Below are positions 19,336-62,420 of a stretch of 64,000 nucleotides of DNA, in pieces. Both the position numbers and the translations under genes were made by a program. The notes beneath the pieces were generated by a model. The model saw only the letters and a list, made by a program, of their open reading frames with translations, made no database searches and was not told the origin of the DNA. Source of the DNA: Arenicellales bacterium (lineage in GTDB: Bacteria > Pseudomonadota > Gammaproteobacteria > Arenicellales > JAJDZL01); NCBI GenBank assembly GCA_965116205.1, contig OZ220493.1, forward strand, positions 2,613,072 to 2,677,071, in the 5' to 3' direction. Each line of letters begins with the position of its first letter. Within the stretch, counting starts at the first letter, position 1.

Positions 19336-20271
19336 CTACTGATCTTTCAATTCTGGAATCGGGTAGGGTGGTTCTTGGCTTTCCAATTGCAGAGGGTATT
19401 GATCAGCTATCAGTAGACTTTTGTGATTGATGAATTTAAGTGGTACGGAAACCAGCATTTCAGCTCGCTGACCATTTTTTTGAATCAGCGAATTGATGAC
19501 CATTCCGGTCTGGCTGCCAACGATATCCGGGCAGGTGATGACATCACCCGGCTTCGGTGCCGCTCTCGCGTTGCAGTATGCCTGAAACATCCGTCGATTG
19601 ATGCCACCTCGGTAATGCAATCTGGCAACAATTTCCTGTCCTGGATAGCAACCTTTGGTCCAGTTGATTGCATCAAGCAAGTCAAGGTTAATGGCTTGGG
19701 CAACCATAGTTTCACTAGTATCTGGAACCACCCAAGGTATACCGGCGGCAATGTCCTGCGCCCACCACATTTCTGCAGGGCATAAGTTTTCCGAAGTTGC
19801 GGCCCCTTGTACCTGACCCAGTGCCGTCAATATTCCGTGTCGTCTGTCAACTCCAGGCCATCGAAGCACAGTTGACTCATCAATCAGTTCGGTTTCCCAT
19901 ACAGATTTAGGTAGGCTCGAATCAACCATTCCGGAAGCACCTATGCAACTGCAGAATACTAAATCAGGTCGAATGTCAATGGCCACTTTTGCTCTCAACC
20001 TATAAAGTTTCAGGCGTCTTGTCAAAATTTCAGCCAATTCCTTCGTGATCACCAGATAGTATTTCTGGTATCGCATCATCAAAATGAAGTTGGCAATCAC
20101 TCGCCCCTTAGGATTTAAATAAGCGGAAAACTGCGCTCGTTCATGAGTAACTTCCGAGACATCGGAAGTTAGCTGGCGCTGTAGGAATGATTGTGCATCG
20201 TTTCCTGCAATCTCTATGATGGCCAAGTGTTTCAGAATGTATGGATTTAAAAAACTAGATTTTGATTCCAT
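19336..20271 (-). CDS. ygfZ: Folate-binding Fe-S cluster repair / tRNA-modification protein YgfZ
   Basis: GcvT-like fold and the signature KGCYPGQEIVAR. 311 aa. Confidence 0.88.
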   Translation of the reverse strand: MESKSSFLNPYILKHLAIIEIAGNDAQSFLQRQLTSDVSEVTHERAQFSAYLNPKGRVIANFILMMRYQKYYLVITKELAEILTRRLKLYRLRAKVAIDIRPDLVFCSCIGASGMVDSSLPKSVWETELIDESTVLRWPGVDRRHGILTALGQVQGAATSENLCPAEMWWAQDIAAGIPWVVPDTSETMVAQAINLDLLDAINWTKGCYPGQEIVARLHYRGGINRRMFQAYCNARAAPKPGDVITCPDIVGSQTGMVINSLIQKNGQRAEMLVSVPLKFINHKSLLIADQYPLQLESQEPPYPIPELKDQ

Positions 20272-20326: not shown

Positions 20327-20334
20327 ATTGGTTT
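20327..20334. repeat. Left copy of the 8-bp target-site duplication ATTGGTTT of the composite transposon
   Basis: Identical octamer lies immediately outside the left IS (20327-20334) and immediately outside the right IS (25287-25294). Confidence 0.85.
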
Positions 20335-21349
20335 GGCTCTATTCTAAAATTGTATGCGCAGGCGATCAGCAGAAATTGACCGCGGCCCTCAGACAGACCT
20401 GGGGACGTCTCCGCCCGCCCTGCCGATTAAGCAGGTGATTCCATCTCAGATAGCTGTCCAAATAGCTGGTGGCGATGCCTCGGAATGGTTTCAGGAACAG
20501 TTTGAACTCGCGGGGCCGGCTGTTCACCGTCTGAATGTGCAGGGCCCCGCGCACCCGCTCGCCGGCGGACTGGTTAATCGCCTCATGACCGACGCCGAGT
20601 GCCTGTGCCACGCGCGGGTAGCAGGGGTTGGCATCGGACACCAGCAGCGCATCCGGCTGAAGCATGGGGCGTAGCCGTTCAATCAGATTGGCCACATTGA
20701 CGGTCTCCAAGCTATGGCTGGCCGCCGCACCACTGCGGTCGGTGGCGAACAGCATCGGCACCAGTTCGGCGGACCGCCCGCGGGTTGTGCTGGCCCTTGA
20801 AGCTCCGTAGCATGAAGGTTTCATCGGCCTCGACGATGCCATCCAGCCGGTCCGGCGACTGCGCGACGGCGGCCAGGAAACGGTGGCGCCATTGAAAGGC
20901 CGTACCGACCGCAATGTCACACTGTTCGGCCGCGGTGCGCACACTGACACCTTGGTCCAGGCAGGCCCCGAAATCCAGCCAGCGTTCCTTGTGATGCAGA
21001 CCTTGCAGCGGCGTGCCGGTGACCGCGTTGAACGTCCGCCGGCAAGCCTTGCATTGGTCGCGGCGAAGACCATTGTTTCGCCCGCGCGCGATCGCCCCAG
21101 GTGCTTGGCAGTGCGGACAGATGCGGGCTTCATCGACACTCATTTCGATGGCCGTAATGGACGCCTGACCGGTGTCTGAGGCGGTGACCGCCTCGACCAC
21201 CTGACGCTTTTGTGTCTGGGTCAACTCCTCCAGTTGCGCGAGCAGATCCCGAAATTGTTGATGTTTCATAAGGTGAATAACTCCAGTAAAATATCCAGTT
21301 TTTTAAGTATCTGATATTATACCAAAGCATATATTTTTAGAATAGAGCC
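20335..21349 (-). mobile_element. IS1595-family insertion sequence, copy A (1015 bp, internally deleted)
   Basis: Terminal IRs are GGCTCTATTCTAAAATTGTATGC (left) and the reverse complement of GCATATATTTTTAGAATAGAGCC (right). It lacks 53 bp that are present in copy B. Confidence 0.9.
20366..21269 (-). pseudogene. IS1595-family (ISXO2-like DDE) transposase, frameshifted by a 53-bp deletion
   Basis: The N-terminal zinc ribbon (CPHCQ...CKACRRTFN) and IVEADETF DDE segment are in one frame (20712-21269). The C-terminal part is in another frame (ending 20366). The deletion junction is near 20786. Confidence 0.88.
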
Positions 21350-21880
21350 AAACTCTTCTTATCAGGTGCTGACCTGAGTCAGATTCTGCCTGCCCCGGAC
21401 AGCGCCGAACTCGTAATCAAACTAGAGAAACAACTGAGCAGAGGTATGAAAACAGCGAATTGAATTTCAAAGTTCAGATTTGAAACCCAATCCATCTGCC
21501 ACGACGATTCGCCACCTGCAATCGAACATTTACAAACTGATTTGATCACTATGGATTTTTACAGATCTCTAACCCCGGTAATTAAACCCGAACACCGTAA
21601 AAAAATCTCCAAAACCGGCTCTTCAAAGAATGTTTTGTCATTTCATCCTGCATCGTGTCTGTCAGTTTGACGTCATTGATCACCTAGGCATAGGTAACAA
21701 AAAATCTTTTCAATACAACAACCCATTCAGCACTTTCATGAAAAATATTCAACTGTGACTTGATTGAAAAGTCAATCCATATCTTTAAAACAAACAACTT
21801 TCTGCTGTCTGCTGGTCAAGGACATTACTCCGGTCGACGGATAATTAAACCGTGAATGAACACATCCTGGGTTGCCGAAT

Positions 21881-24211
21881 CTAAAACAGCCGCCGCCAGC
21901 CGGCCGTCACTTCAAACTCGGATGGTGCATGCGCATTATGGCCGGGATGGCGCCGATACACGCCTTCTAGCATGAAACCGGCCGTGGCCGACGTTTCATG
22001 CCGCCAGTTGACGGATACATCAATCTGTCGGCCCGTCGGCCTGAGGTCCGCATCCACCTGGGCTCTTAGCACCCTTCCCTCCGGCGTCCGACCCACCGGC
22101 ATAGACATCACCAATGATCCCTTTTCCACGCGCATCGGTTGCGCGATACCCAGTGTGACCCAATTGTTTCTGTCAATCTGACGACTCCCCTGTACCGCAA
22201 AACCGCCGGTCCACACATCACTCATACCAGTGATCACTCCACCACTCACCTGTGGTGTCGATCGACCGATTTCCACCTCAGCCCGCAGACGCCAGTCCGA
22301 CCAGTCGAACACAGTTGTGGCACCGGCCGTAATGGAATGGGTTGCAACACGACCGAACGCCCCGGACGTCTCCGAACCGAGTATCGACGCGCCTTCTCCT
22401 AGCCATGCAATACGAAATGCCAAAGGCAGCGAACGAGTCCTCCAGGACAGCGCCAATCCGGTCATTGGCTGGAATTCTCGAATCGGTGAAGTGGTATACG
22501 CACTCAGTGAAACCCGACTGCTACCTGCGTAGGTAAAACCCATGGCATTTTCCGCCAGAGATAGTGGTCCGATGCCTGAGCCATGGCCGGTTCGCAGAAA
22601 ACCGATCTGCAATTGACCAGCTGACTGATGACCGCCAGCCGCCATGCCGGAAATATCGGTGGCGAATGACAGTATGGACTTCTCATCCGTTCGCGTCTGC
22701 ATACTCCGATCCCATCGGTGCAGACGCTCTGACAGCCGACGGGAGGACCGTTGATGTTGAACAAAAGCGGACAGTTCATGCCAGAAAGGCGCACCCAGTC
22801 GGTCGAACGTCACGATTTCATGATTCATCAGACCGGAACGAAATCCATCGCCGAAGGCCATGCCCAACTTCAGTTGACTACTCTGCAGACTGAAGCCACC
22901 ATCATCAACAGAGTTTCCCAAGGCCAGCGTCTGTTGACCTTGAGGGGAAGTGGCCGCGCCTAAATCCATCAACCCCTGACCATAGGTATCACTGTCCGCA
23001 TAGATGTCGGACTTCTTCGCCGTCGCATACAGTCTCTGCAGCAGTGCGGTGTTGGACAGCTGACCGCGAAAGATGTGCTTCATGACGGCTAGTCCGCCGG
23101 TAACAAAAGGCGCCGCAAATGAAGTACCAAGATAATTACCGTTCGTTGTGCCGCCGAGTACTGCTGCCCTTATATCTCTACCCGGAGCGGCAATACACCA
23201 TTGTGCCGCGATTCCGCAGCGATTCGAAAAATAGGAAATCTCACCCGCCGATGGCCCCTTTGAATCCACCGCAACCACCACGACCGAATGGCTGCGCAAT
23301 TCGGCAATCCTTACCATCAACGCATTACTAAAATGAGGTGAAGATGCAACTATTTTTCCAGAAACACAATTGACAGTGCCAACAGCGCATACGGCTTCAT
23401 TTGCGTTACCGGCTGAGTAAACCAAAATAGTCTTTTCTGAACGGTCGGCCTGCGCTAGAAGCTGGATTCGTGGGGAAATATGTTTTCTCAATTCTGTTTC
23501 ACTGTACTTGGGGTTATCGATCAGTCCACGAGAAGAAAAACTCATATTCAAGAAATCCACCCCATCATTGAAGGCACGGACAATCCTATTTAAAGCACTT
23601 TCAGGACTACTGTAATACACCTCAATGTCCTCATGAGAATACGGCGGAGGAGCTGGTGGTTGTGTCGGATAGGTAATGGTATACATCGTAAAATCAGCCC
23701 CCCAAGCGATGCCACCAAATTTCTTCATCAAGTCCAAACTGGATTGAGGATTCGAAGCCATCACACTGATCACCGCGGTCCCATGTCCAACATCTTTCCT
23801 GCCGTTCGCGAAGTATGCGTTCTTCGAAACGTGTTCGAATACCGTATGGTCCAGATCAATACCATTATCAATCACACCGATTTTGATTCCTTCACCCGGC
23901 CGCAACGTCGGAGTGCGCGCCGGGTCAGATGAACCACCACCTCTGGAGGACTCCAGATTGACATAGGCTTCATCAGCCTTGATCAAACCCAATGCCGGTT
24001 GATTGGTAAATCTCATTTGTGTTCGATAATTCTGCCTGATCGTGTTGCGCTGGGCCGAAGTCAGGGGTTGAAATACCAGCAACGTAGACGGATTCACCTG
24101 GACGGGGGGGGGCACCGGATCGGGGTTGGCTTGACCCACACTGGAACCACCACCGCCTCCGCAGCTGGTGACCAGAGAACTCAGAATAACAATGATAGTA
24201 AATCTGCTCAA
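21881..24211 (-). CDS. Subtilisin-like (S8) serine protease lipoprotein with a C-terminal outer-membrane beta-barrel (autotransporter-like)
   Basis: Lipobox LVTSC followed by GGGGGS. Catalytic D (GVIDNGIDLDH), H (GHGTAVISV) and S (GTSFAAPFVTGG). The C-terminal ~270 aa have alternating hydrophobic pattern and end in ...GWRRLF. TTG start. Confidence 0.85.
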   Translation of the reverse strand: MSRFTIIVILSSLVTSCGGGGGSSVGQANPDPVPPPVQVNPSTLLVFQPLTSAQRNTIRQNYRTQMRFTNQPALGLIKADEAYVNLESSRGGGSSDPARTPTLRPGEGIKIGVIDNGIDLDHTVFEHVSKNAYFANGRKDVGHGTAVISVMASNPQSSLDLMKKFGGIAWGADFTMYTITYPTQPPAPPPYSHEDIEVYYSSPESALNRIVRAFNDGVDFLNMSFSSRGLIDNPKYSETELRKHISPRIQLLAQADRSEKTILVYSAGNANEAVCAVGTVNCVSGKIVASSPHFSNALMVRIAELRSHSVVVVAVDSKGPSAGEISYFSNRCGIAAQWCIAAPGRDIRAAVLGGTTNGNYLGTSFAAPFVTGGLAVMKHIFRGQLSNTALLQRLYATAKKSDIYADSDTYGQGLMDLGAATSPQGQQTLALGNSVDDGGFSLQSSQLKLGMAFGDGFRSGLMNHEIVTFDRLGAPFWHELSAFVQHQRSSRRLSERLHRWDRSMQTRTDEKSILSFATDISGMAAGGHQSAGQLQIGFLRTGHGSGIGPLSLAENAMGFTYAGSSRVSLSAYTTSPIREFQPMTGLALSWRTRSLPLAFRIAWLGEGASILGSETSGAFGRVATHSITAGATTVFDWSDWRLRAEVEIGRSTPQVSGGVITGMSDVWTGGFAVQGSRQIDRNNWVTLGIAQPMRVEKGSLVMSMPVGRTPEGRVLRAQVDADLRPTGRQIDVSVNWRHETSATAGFMLEGVYRRHPGHNAHAPSEFEVTAGWRRLF
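24104..24112 (-). repeat. C9 homopolymer (G9 on the + strand) inside the S8 protease coding region, encoding PPP at codons ~34-36
   Basis: The direct read is gacGGGGGGGGGcacc. On the coding strand it reads GTG CCC CCC CCC GTC. Confidence 0.95.
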
Positions 24212-24218
24212 TGAAAAA

Positions 24219-25286
24219 GGCTCTATTCTAAAATTGTATGCGCAGGCGATCAGCAGAAATTGACCGCGGCCCTCAGACAGACCTGGGGACGTCTCCGACC
24301 GCCCTGCCGATTAAGCAGGTGATTCCATCTCAGATAGCTGTCCAGATAGCTGGTGGCGATGCCTCAGAATGGTTTCAGGAACAGTTTGAACTCGCGGTGC
24401 CGGCTGTTCACCGTCTGAATGTGCAGGGGCCCGCGCACCCGTTCGCCGGCGGACTGGTTAATCGCCTCATGACCGACGCCGAGTGCCTGTGCCACGCGCG
24501 GGTAGCAGGGGTTGGCATCGGACACCAGCAGCGCATCCGGCTGAAGCATGGGGCGTAGCCGTTCAATCAGATTGGCCACATTGACGGTCTCCAAGCTATG
24601 GCTGGCCGTCGCACCACTGCGGTCGGTGGCGAACAGCATCGGCACCAGTTCGGCGGACCGTCCGCGGGTTGATGCTTTGCCACCCCGCTTTCGGGGTTCG
24701 CGTGCGGCGGCTGTCCGCTGGTTGTGCTGGCCCTTGAAGCTCCGTAGCATGAAGGTTTCATCGGCCTCGACGATACCATCCAGCCGGTCCGGCGACTGCT
24801 CGACGGCGGCCAGGAAACGGTGGCGCCATTGAAAGGCCGTACCGACCGCAATCTCGCACTGTTCGGCCGCGGTGCGCACACTGACACCTTGGGCCAGGCA
24901 GGCCCCGAAATCCAGCCAGCGTTCCTTGTGATGCAGACCTTGCAGCGGCGTGCCGGTGACCGCGTTGAACGTCCGCCGGCAAGCCTTGCATTGGTCGCGG
25001 CGAAGACCATTGTTTCGCCCGCGCGCGATCGCCCCAGGTGCTTGGCAGTGCGGACAGATGCGGGCTTCATCGACACTCATTTCGATGGCCGTAATGGACG
25101 CCTGACCGGTGTCTGAGGCGGTGACCGCCTCGACCACCTGACGCTTTTGTGTCCGGGTCAACTCCTCCAGTTGCGCGAGCAGACCCCGAAATTGCTGATG
25201 TTTCATAAGGTGAATAACTCCAGTAAAATATCCAGTTTTTTAAGTATCTGATATTATACCAAAGCATATATTTTTAGAATAGAGCC
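24219..25286 (-). mobile_element. IS1595-family insertion sequence, copy B (1068 bp)
   Basis: Same IRs as copy A. The two are collinear except for scattered substitutions and the 53-bp segment 24671-24723. Confidence 0.9.
24250..25206 (-). pseudogene. IS1595-family transposase with a premature TGA (ORF 24364-25206; full frame would end at 24250)
   Basis: Codon 281 is TGA (complement of 24364-24366). Copy A has CGA at the equivalent position (20480-20482), and its frame continues ~38 codons further. Confidence 0.8.
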
Positions 25287-25294
25287 ATTGGTTT
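25287..25294. repeat. Right copy of the 8-bp target-site duplication ATTGGTTT
   Basis: See 20327-20334. Confidence 0.85.
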
Positions 25295-25568: not shown

Positions 25569-25763
25569 ATGGTATCAAAACGTAACACCATGAAAAGATC
25601 TTCACCATTTCCTAACCCAGCAGCAACCTCTAAAAGTACGAAAAAAGAAGCGGCGTCTTCCGGTAGGAAAATAGTACCTAGTACGATGCAGTCCGAGTTG
25701 CGACCCGCCGATCCGACTCGGTATGGCGACTGGCAAATTAATGGCAGGTGCATTGACTTTTGA
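25569..25763 (+). CDS. DUF1674 / SDHAF4-like small protein
   Basis: The C-terminus ...DPTRYGDWQINGRCIDF matches the family signature (PEPTRYGDWERKGRCIDF in eukaryotic SDHAF4). It lies directly upstream of sdhC. The start could instead be the internal ATG at 25590. Confidence 0.75.
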   Translation: MVSKRNTMKRSSPFPNPAATSKSTKKEAASSGRKIVPSTMQSELRPADPTRYGDWQINGRCIDF

Positions 25764-25811
25764 CAGTCGATCATGGAATATCTCATTTAATCAGATAAAA
25801 ACGTTTTTTAT

Positions 25812-26201
25812 ATGGATTCAACGGATCGACCTCTTTCACCCCATATCCAGGTCTATCGGCCGCAACTGACGTCGGTATTGTCTATTCTGCACAGAATCAC
25901 TGGAGTGTTGCTAGGTTTGGGTGCAGTTCTGGTGGCTGTAGGTCTCGCTTCAATGGCCTACAGTCCGGAGTTTTTTACCCAAGCCATTCACCTGCTTGGT
26001 AGTGTTTGGGGGCAATTGTTTCTGTTTTTGTGGACTTTAGTTCTTTTTTATCATTTATGCAATGGAATTCGTCATCTCATCTGGGATGCGGGACACGGAT
26101 TTGAGTTGCACCAGGTCTATAAAAGCGGCTGGGTTGTCATCATCGGCGCGTTCGCATTGACAGCATTCATTTGGACGATTGGTTATACGACCGGTGGTTA
26201 A
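25812..26201 (+). CDS. sdhC: Succinate dehydrogenase cytochrome b556 subunit
   Basis: RPLSPHIQVYRPQLTSVLSILHRITG motif and three TM segments. Confidence 0.92.
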   Translation: MDSTDRPLSPHIQVYRPQLTSVLSILHRITGVLLGLGAVLVAVGLASMAYSPEFFTQAIHLLGSVWGQLFLFLWTLVLFYHLCNGIRHLIWDAGHGFELHQVYKSGWVVIIGAFALTAFIWTIGYTTGG

Positions 26202-61304: not shown

Positions 61305-61379
61305 GGGCGCATAGCTCAGGGGGAGAGCACTTGCTTGACATGCAAGAGGTCCCTGGTTCAATCCCAGGTGCGCCCACCA
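61305..61379 (+). tRNA. tRNA-Val (anticodon GAC)
   Basis: Acceptor GGGCGCA/TGCGCCC, anticodon stem CTTGC/GCAAG with loop TTGACAT, T-loop TTCAATC, encoded CCA. 75 nt. Confidence 0.93.
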
Positions 61380-61662
61380 TTCTCAGTTGGTTGAGCCAAT
61401 AAATGAAATTTAGTTCGTTTGAGTGAATGAAAAGACCACGTGTACGAAGCAATTGATGGTGCTTGATTGAGTTGAATCGCTGAGTTCATGATTGGAATGA
61501 ATCAGAATGAACGAGGAAGAACGAGAAGCATGGCTTCGAAAAAAGAAACGGCAGGATATGATTTTGGGGGTTGTGGGTTGGATTTGGATAGGATTCTGCA
61601 TTTGGGTGTTTTTTTCAAATAATGAAATGAACTCAATGCCCTGAAATCTACACTAAACTCAA

Positions 61663-61786
61663 GGCTCTATTCCAAAATCGTGCGCGTGTACATAAAATCA
61701 GATACTTGGAAATCAGTAAATATCACTTTATTTCAAAGCTATACAGCTGTTGATGTTCTCTGCGCATACAATTGTAGAATAGAGCC
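61663..61786. mobile_element. 124-bp MITE derived from the IS1595-family element, flanked by the 8-bp duplication AAACTCAA
   Basis: The ends are GGCTCTATTCCAAAATCGTGCGCG and the reverse complement of CTGCGCATACAATTGTAGAATAGAGCC, which is near-identical to the IS end. The subterminal ATCAGATACTT is shared with the other IS end. Duplications lie at 61655-61662 and 61787-61794. Confidence 0.85.
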
Positions 61787-62420
61787 AAACTCAAAGTCTA
61801 AAATAGATCATTTTCAGTACAAATCGCCAATATAAGAAGTCGTGGCACGAGTTGGTTATCGATCTGTGTTCACCTCAGCTGTGCCTCTGGCAGTTGGCCA
61901 TGAAACTCGGTGCCTTATCTACACAGGTTGCGAAATTCGATTTGAAAACGTAACCGATCAATTTCAACTTTCCCAGACGAGTATTTGCCATAGAGCACTG
62001 GCGATTTAGACCTGAAAATGTCACAAAGTCAGACATTTTTTCTACTGTAGCCATAAATTCCGTCAAGAACGGCCATCATACAATAACACTACGGATCATT
62101 AATCTGACATGGGATATGTTTAATTGATTTTAAGTTCTACTCCAATCAACCGGAAAATGTTGTTTTACGAAGAGTCAATCTTTAGCAACACTTGGCATGA
62201 TGAAGGCAGTGTAACGGTAATGTCAGTATGACTCATCAATGCAATACCAAAACAAAACGTTCGAATCCGGTGGAATGTGAGCAAAATAGCTGACATACTA
62301 CCATTGATTGGCGTTGACTCGACTGTATCACACCATATAATTAGACATCTTCTTTTGGTTCGTCGACAAGGTTGACCGGCGGCCAGTACCAATCCACATT
62401 GAGTATTTTCGACGATTGTT

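Follow-up and report, generated by a model that had tools for sequence, protein, structure and literature searches.

A 4,952-bp segment of the genome of an Arenicellales bacterium consists of two directly repeated copies of an insertion sequence (IS) of the IS1595 family, separated by 2,869 bp of cargo, and is bordered on both outer sides by the same octamer, ATTGGTTT. The segment was analysed within 64,000 nucleotides of contig OZ220493.1 (assembly GCA_965116205.1, positions 2,613,072 to 2,677,071); this whole stretch is referred to below as the window. It lies between ygfZ and the DUF1674-sdhCDAB cluster, and its cargo includes a 5'-truncated gene for an S8 (subtilase) protein. We consider it moderately probable that the segment is a composite transposon, formed by two co-oriented IS1595-family copies and inserted as one unit. 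In the nomenclature used for IS26, such a unit is a pseudo-compound transposon. Given the state of its transposase genes, we would classify the element as a fossil composite transposon that has kept its duplication and would be movable only with a transposase supplied in trans.

The flanking octamers carry this reading. ATTGGTTT touches the outer ends of both IS copies and the repeat is exactly 8 bp long, the next base differing on each side; the probability that two random 8-mers of the window coincide is 2.3e-5. The inner flanks, AAACTCTT (at 21350) and ATGAAAAA (24211-24218), agree with the outer octamer at 3/8 and 2/8 positions, respectively, and with one another at 1/8. Neither IS copy has an individual target-site duplication, and a single 8-bp duplication surrounds the whole unit. 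Unrelated DNA is enclosed by two copies of the same IS, whose outer ends pair as left and right terminal inverted repeats (IRL/IRR): both copies have their transposase on the - strand, and with this direct orientation the outside ends comprise one transposase-downstream and one transposase-upstream end. These observations agree, base for base, with a first-pass annotation of the window, which had placed direct IS1595-family copies at 20335-21349 and 24219-25286 with a shared octamer immediately outside them and unmatched flanks inside, and had named ygfZ and DUF1674/sdhC as the neighbours. Its proposal that the unit moved as one element is supported by the single shared duplication and the IRL/IRR outer pair, which do not discriminate this route from recombination. 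That annotation also named a common local repeat as an explanation of the octamer that would refute its reading. This explanation is ruled out: ATTGGTTT has four further copies in the window (26239, 30825, 49682 and 51855; approximately one is expected by base composition), and the six occurrences, none of them on the - strand, have no common context or flanks.

The affiliation of the IS is supported by its structure and by profile searches. Each copy possesses terminal inverted repeats of 23 bp, complementary at 21/23 positions and beginning GGCTCTATTC (5'-GG), and the end sequence of the IS reads GGCTCTATTCTAAAA. The full-length IS, of 1,068 bp, contains a single 318-codon frame, and thus has the size, the one gene and the inverted repeats of an IS1595-family element. 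Pfam PF12762 (DDE_Tnp_IS1595) matches the right copy at 34.5 bits (cut-off 27), whilst the 318-amino-acid (aa) transposase reconstructed by reading through its stop codon scores 147 bits against NCBIfam NF033547 (transpos_IS1595; cut-off 75) and aligns end to end with 319-aa full-length relatives. In the transposase alignment D149, D230 and K274 are invariant, N267 is kept in all but one sequence and a CPHC-x18-CKAC zinc motif (CxxC...CxxC) is conserved; a helix-turn-helix is also present. The zinc-finger model NF050000 (IS1_IS1595_Zn) reaches 26.7 bits, slightly below its cut-off of 28, and PF12760 is present in relatives of the transposase. An N-terminal zinc-finger is found in every IS1595 group but IS1016 (PMC8101967), so that its presence places this IS outside the IS1016 group. 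Elements of this family are generally bordered by 8-bp duplications (PMC8101967), as are both the composite (ATTGGTTT) and a 124-bp derivative of the IS elsewhere in the window (AAACTCAA), in keeping with the earlier description of such a duplication as a hallmark of IS1595 transposition.

The closest full-length relatives of the transposase recovered in the protein search are only 58% identical to it, and a fragment, P0277, is 77% identical. This fragment derives from a decayed IS copy (L083:5666-6679) that has 82.6% nucleotide identity to the IS, a fragmented transposase and no left inverted repeat; its right end reads ...TAGAATAGAGCC, followed by ATTTATTT. The copy is situated on a 12-kb contig from the same European Nucleotide Archive sample (ERZ24894574) as a related 3.43-Mb Arenicellales genome. 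Judged on this divergence, the element would represent, to our knowledge, a previously undescribed, new IS of the IS1595 family. A blastn search of the IS against the PLSDB plasmids gave no match. The guanine plus cytosine (GC) content of the IS is 60% overall, and 72% at third codon positions (GC3) of the transposase gene, in a window with a background of 47.5% GC; in composition only the IS looks foreign, or imported, and not the protease gene.

Within the window the IS has also given rise to a 124-bp element resembling a miniature inverted-repeat transposable element, which is an internal-deletion derivative of the composite's IS in the opposite orientation. It is surrounded by a perfect 8-bp duplication of its own, AAACTCAA (61655-61662 and 61787-61794), from which it follows that the IS made 8-bp duplications in this genome and was mobilised in trans. 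AT-rich 8-bp targets have been reported for ISEc69/Tn7052 and ISApl4 (PMC7835479, PMC12561309), with which the composition of ATTGGTTT and AAACTCAA, each 75% A+T, agrees. The derivative lies approximately 280 bp downstream of a valine transfer RNA (tRNA-Val) gene (61305-61379). The first six bases of AAACTCAA, AAACTC, are also the first six of AAACTCTT, the inner flank of the left IS copy, which is probably a coincidence.

Between the two copies of the IS in the composite there are 16 substitutions and a single 53-bp indel, and the transposase genes of both are defective, so that the element has no functional transposase in cis and is now non-autonomous. Relative to the right copy, the left copy has undergone a deletion of 53 bp after 20782, between GGTTG microhomologies, which shifts the frame; the open reading frames (ORFs) that remain span 20712-21269 (185 aa, identical to P0284 of the source genome) and 20366-21139. 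In the right copy the frame of 318 codons (25206-24250) is interrupted at codon 281 by TGA (24364-24366), where the left copy has CGA, and this premature stop drops the invariant residues I283, A284, T285, L288, L292, W294 and H296. Nine of the differences between the copies are non-synonymous and seven are synonymous, numbers that are uninformative on when selection was lost. Decay of IS1016-type copies by premature stops is known from other genomes (PMC12561309).

Table 1. Features of the composite element, its neighbours and its miniature derivative, in window coordinates
Feature	Position	Strand	Basis or remark
Left copy of target-site duplication, ATTGGTTT	20327..20334		Direct read; chance identity with right copy 2.3e-5
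Right copy of target-site duplication, ATTGGTTT	25287..25294		Direct read
Left IS copy, 1,015 bp, IS1595 family	20335..21349	-	Transposase pseudogene; Pfam PF12762 on C-terminal frame
Right IS copy, 1,068 bp, full length	24219..25286	-	NCBIfam NF033547, 147 bits
Outer terminal inverted repeat GGCTCTATTCTAAAATTGTATGC, transposase-downstream end of left IS	20335..20357		Inverted-repeat search
Outer terminal inverted repeat GCATATATTTTTAGAATAGAGCC, transposase-upstream end of right IS	25264..25286		Inverted-repeat search
Non-coding cargo, 531 bp, downstream of protease gene	21350..21880	-	40.7% GC
Cargo gene, 776-aa S8 (subtilase) protein	21881..24211	-	Pfam PF00082; alignments; structure models; fold matches; L005 junction comparison
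Spacer of 7 nt, TTTTTCA (- strand), from right IS end to TTG	24212..24218	-	Ancestral coding sequence, codons 3-5 of homologue
ygfZ, left neighbour	19336..20271	-	GCV_T domain; homologues named YgfZ by JGI
DUF1674 gene and sdhC, right neighbours, start of sdhCDAB cluster	25569..26201	+	DUF1674 25569-25763; sdhC 25812-26201
Miniature IS derivative, 124 bp, with its 8-bp duplication	61655..61794		IS part 61663-61786, opposite orientation

The insertion lies 56 bp from the start codon of ygfZ, which is co-oriented with both transposase genes, in an AT-rich divergent region between this gene and DUF1674-sdhCDAB. The corresponding junction was compared in three related Arenicellales genomes. In one (L003, 5263-6001) sdhBADC, DUF1674 and ygfZ are contiguous and the junction is empty; in another (L002, 300-8000) it is occupied by an IS4-type transposase gene and two PDDEXK_9 genes, and in the third (L004, 2513-6000) by two Transposase_31 genes, with no protease gene in either case. 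The protease gene is therefore absent from the junction in 3/3 relatives, identifying it as an insertion in the present genome. The first-pass annotation had suggested a search of related genomes for an empty site: this succeeded to the extent that one relative is simply empty and none has the protease, but a base-level empty site was not found. In the light of these arrangements, the intergenic region between ygfZ and DUF1674-sdhC looks like a recurrent insertion hotspot for mobile DNA.

The capture of the cargo gene can be read at its junction with the right IS. A homologue in the related 3.43-Mb Arenicellales genome (locus L005) begins ATG ACG TAT TTT TCA TTG AGC, and the bases that follow the right IS end in the composite, T TTT TCA TTG AGC, are identical to it at 13/13 nt (ATGACGTA/TTTTTCATTGAGC in L005). 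From this identity, the right IS interrupts the ancestral frame of the protease 8 nt from its start, which implies that the native ATG, ribosome-binding site and promoter have been lost from the cargo gene. The earliest start codon possible is an in-frame TTG. As the right IS is co-oriented with the protease gene and directly upstream of it, the protease, if expressed, would be translated from this TTG and transcribed by read-through from the right-hand transposase gene. Scans for promoter and terminator consensus sequences gave background levels, and an outward promoter in the IS is unsupported. On the downstream side, the 531-bp non-coding stretch contains a terminator-like hairpin (21456-21494, - strand), has no long ORF and resembles neither other parts of the window nor any of the fetched loci; Rfam identified only two tRNAs, elsewhere in the window, and nothing in this stretch.

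At 53.3% GC, the protease gene is only mildly richer in GC than the 47.5% background, and its closest homologue in a related genome exceeds its flanking sequence by a similarly small margin. The first-pass description of a GC-rich subtilase gene alongside AT-rich non-coding DNA is thus overstated for the gene; the 531-bp stretch has 40.7% GC. Along the gene GC is uneven (window 23300-23900), codons 200-300 having 42% GC and a GC3 of 35%, and the C-terminal barrel region 55-62%, a hint that the gene's history may be mosaic. Its nearest homologues comprise two paralogues from the 3.33-Mb genome that carries the composite (66% and 60% identity) and the L005 homologue (63%), which lies between topA and a photolyase gene in an ordinary chromosomal context. 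On these sequence comparisons the protease is a member of a paralogous family native to the lineage, and not clearly foreign. Approximately 1.9 kb downstream of the L005 homologue is a 147-aa ORF with an IS1595-type zinc-ribbon (L005:10165-10608), too distant to match the transposase. The composite's IS was found at 0/78 homologous protease loci; one of the 78, L025, has a distant IS1595-type transposase of 25% identity.

The 776-aa cargo protein has a lipoprotein-type signal peptide, in which Cys17 follows a hydrophobic stretch and precedes GGGGG; this cysteine is invariant in a 9-sequence alignment and at least 90% conserved in an alignment of 60 sequences. The S8 domain (PF00082) scores 93.6 bits and its catalytic triad, D115/H143/S364, is intact, these three residues and N269 being invariant in the 60 sequences. 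The C-terminal domain, residues 533-773, is conserved and is modelled as all-beta, and the chain ends ...GWRRLF, with a final F. Fold searches with the N-terminal half recovered subtilisins and the passenger of the Ssp autotransporter, and those with the C-terminal half generic outer-membrane barrels, with porins/FapF ranked above EstA/EspP and template-modelling scores of 0.3-0.5. The Pfam Autotransporter barrel has no match in the cargo protein, and NCBIfam hidden Markov models for EprS and fusolisin match weakly, all NCBIfam scores being far under their cut-offs. The protein has the signal peptide and the S8 passenger with catalytic triad that are expected of a type Va subtilase. Taken with the models, 'surface protease' is a reasonable designation for what would be its role, whilst it is at most a candidate member of the type Va autotransporters. 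NalP and SphB1 are subtilase autotransporters with a lipoprotein-type signal peptide. Like these proteins, Ssp of Serratia and EprS, the cargo protein combines a signal peptide and an S8 passenger with a C-terminal domain, predicted to be an outer-membrane beta-barrel, that ends in an aromatic residue; it differs from the NalP/SphB1 type in lacking a Pfam Autotransporter match and in a modelled barrel that appears as similar to porins and FapF as to EstA and EspP.

If the segment was inserted as one unit, its history would begin at a donor locus, at which one IS copy inserted into a resident S8 protease gene, 8 nt from its 5' end, and a second approximately 530 bp downstream of this gene. The expected scar at such a locus would be ...ATGACGTATTTTTCAT beside one end of the IS, or a lone IS copy bordered by AAACTCTT. 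Transposase acting on the two outermost ends, an IRL/IRR pair, would then have moved the 4,952-bp unit to the region between ygfZ and DUF1674-sdhCDAB, where the staggered cut and its repair would have duplicated ATTGGTTT. Later decay of both transposase genes would have followed, by a 53-bp slippage deletion on the left and a nonsense mutation on the right. A precedent exists in Tn7052, a directly oriented IS1595-family composite that moves as a whole when placed in a recA mutant, generating 8-bp duplications (PMC7835479). The same final sequence could, however, be reached by recombination, between which and transposition of the unit the present data do not discriminate: a solo IS would have made the ATTGGTTT duplication and then received, by homologous recombination, a circle comprising a single IS with the 2,869-bp cargo, such as a donor composite could release through recombination of its two direct IS copies; or else the circle's own IS would have formed a replicative cointegrate with the site. 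We regard this history as possible, if on the unlikely side. The direct orientation of the copies is that which circle formation requires, the process has been put forward for IS pairs in direct orientation, among them the IS1595-family ISApl4/Tn7560 (PMC12561309), and the genome and lineage contain further copies or derivatives of the IS. It would also easily explain the 1.6% divergence of the two copies, which would have been different from the outset. On the other hand, this history requires two events and composite transposition a single one, and experiments have demonstrated that an IS1595-family composite in direct orientation transposes independently of RecA (PMC7835479). Some observations weigh against insertion as one unit. 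The copies, besides being 1.6% divergent, are both defective, which indicates that the event is not recent and makes mobility of the unit not demonstrable. An intact transposase of this IS from the source genome was absent in the protein search, a weak negative given that the database also lacks the right copy's 280-aa ORF. When metagenomes were scanned, the reconstructed empty site (CAGTCAATTGGTTTTATCAGTC) gave 0 matches, as did the IS end. The metagenome scans and the 78 protease loci likewise yielded no second copy of the IS-protease-IS unit, which the first-pass annotation had suggested seeking in other replicons. Finally, for the source species no close relative has been sequenced, and the nearest available genomes share 49-56% YgfZ identity, so that the empty-site comparison operates at the level of gene order only.

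Two further explanations fare considerably worse. Were the protease ancestral at this locus, with the IS copies arriving on its two sides independently, as the native status of the protease family and its several paralogues per genome might suggest, each IS would be expected to have its own duplication; the flanks are instead ATTGGTTT/AAACTCTT on the left and ATGAAAAA/ATTGGTTT on the right, with the outermost pair alone matching. Related genomes have their homologues at other loci, and none between ygfZ and DUF1674/sdhC. Independent flanking insertions are effectively refuted by the flank pattern, and an origin in situ is accordingly very improbable. A mis-join across the repeat is hardly credible: assemblers can go wrong at repeats that are 98% identical over approximately 1 kb, but a mis-join would not yield a matching 8-bp duplication at both outer junctions, the copies are distinguishable by their substitutions and indel, and the protein database places the protease on a single 3.33-Mb contig.

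Insertion as a composite would make the element one of a kind already known, represented by Tn7052, Tn7560 and the IS1016-flanked cap locus, and no new mechanism is revealed. Tn7052 (ISEc69-mcr-2-pap2-ISEc69) resembles it in its direct IS1595-family copies, short cargo and AT-rich 8-bp duplication (PMC7835479). However, ISEc69 is one of the small IS1016-type elements, and its 217-aa transposase lacks a zinc finger, in contrast to the 318 aa and zinc finger of the present transposase, and its composite carries an antibiotic-resistance gene on a plasmid, whereas a 5'-truncated protease gene is found here on a chromosome between two dead transposase genes (PMC7835479). Tn7560, formed by ISApl4 in Actinobacillus pleuropneumoniae, likewise has direct IS1595-family ends and AT-rich 8-bp duplications, and a translocatable-unit route has been proposed for it (PMC12561309). 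ISApl4 is 712 bp long and active, with 39 copies, and the copies that bound Tn7560 have no shared duplication, whereas here the duplication is intact and the element inactive (PMC12561309). In Haemophilus influenzae, IS1016 copies, also of the IS1595 family, surround a chromosomal surface-structure locus, cap, and drive its duplication or mobility (PMC6535587). That locus differs in its cargo of approximately 18 kb, its mainly tandem amplification by recombination and its IS subgroup. The IS1016-flanked cap locus was reportedly the subject of work by Kroll et al. The first-pass remark that IS1595-type elements are rarely discussed as the ends of composites carrying a surface protease stands as regards the cargo, which is unusual, but not as regards the composites, which are documented (PMC7835479, PMC12561309, PMC6535587). 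What is new here is the IS, the non-resistance cargo, a capture junction that is still legible and has removed the 5' end of the cargo gene, and full decay with the duplication intact.

At 36-41% identity, the family of S8 lipoprotein/beta-barrel proteins extends (loci L005-L082, by genome label) to Nitrospirales, Binatia, Acidobacteria, Alphaproteobacteria, Chloroflexi, Ca. Porisulfidus, Spirochaetia and Arenicellales, often with several copies per genome. Many of these genomes have sponge or coral bin names (SB06xx, RHO, COS, APA and Plut), of which we take the RHO, COS, APA and Plut bins to be of sponge or coral origin. The SB06xx Poribacteria bins are listed in PMC7883664. This distribution suggests that the family comprises host-association genes with a patchy, possibly horizontally transferred distribution. 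A further proposal, speculative and rather unlikely, is that the family spreads horizontally among co-resident symbionts with the composite as a vehicle. If this were true, the IS1595 composite would be the first observed instance of such a vehicle for this family, one of whose members would have been copied or relocated, deprived of its own promoter and placed under IS-driven transcription.

For the uncultured Arenicellales lineage, the analysis contributes a putative new IS together with its miniature derivative and a decayed relative of it, and flags the ygfZ/sdh intergenic region as an apparent repeated landing site of mobile DNA. For the IS1595 family, the element would provide a clean natural case of a chromosomal, non-resistance gene mobilised as a composite unit by members of the family.

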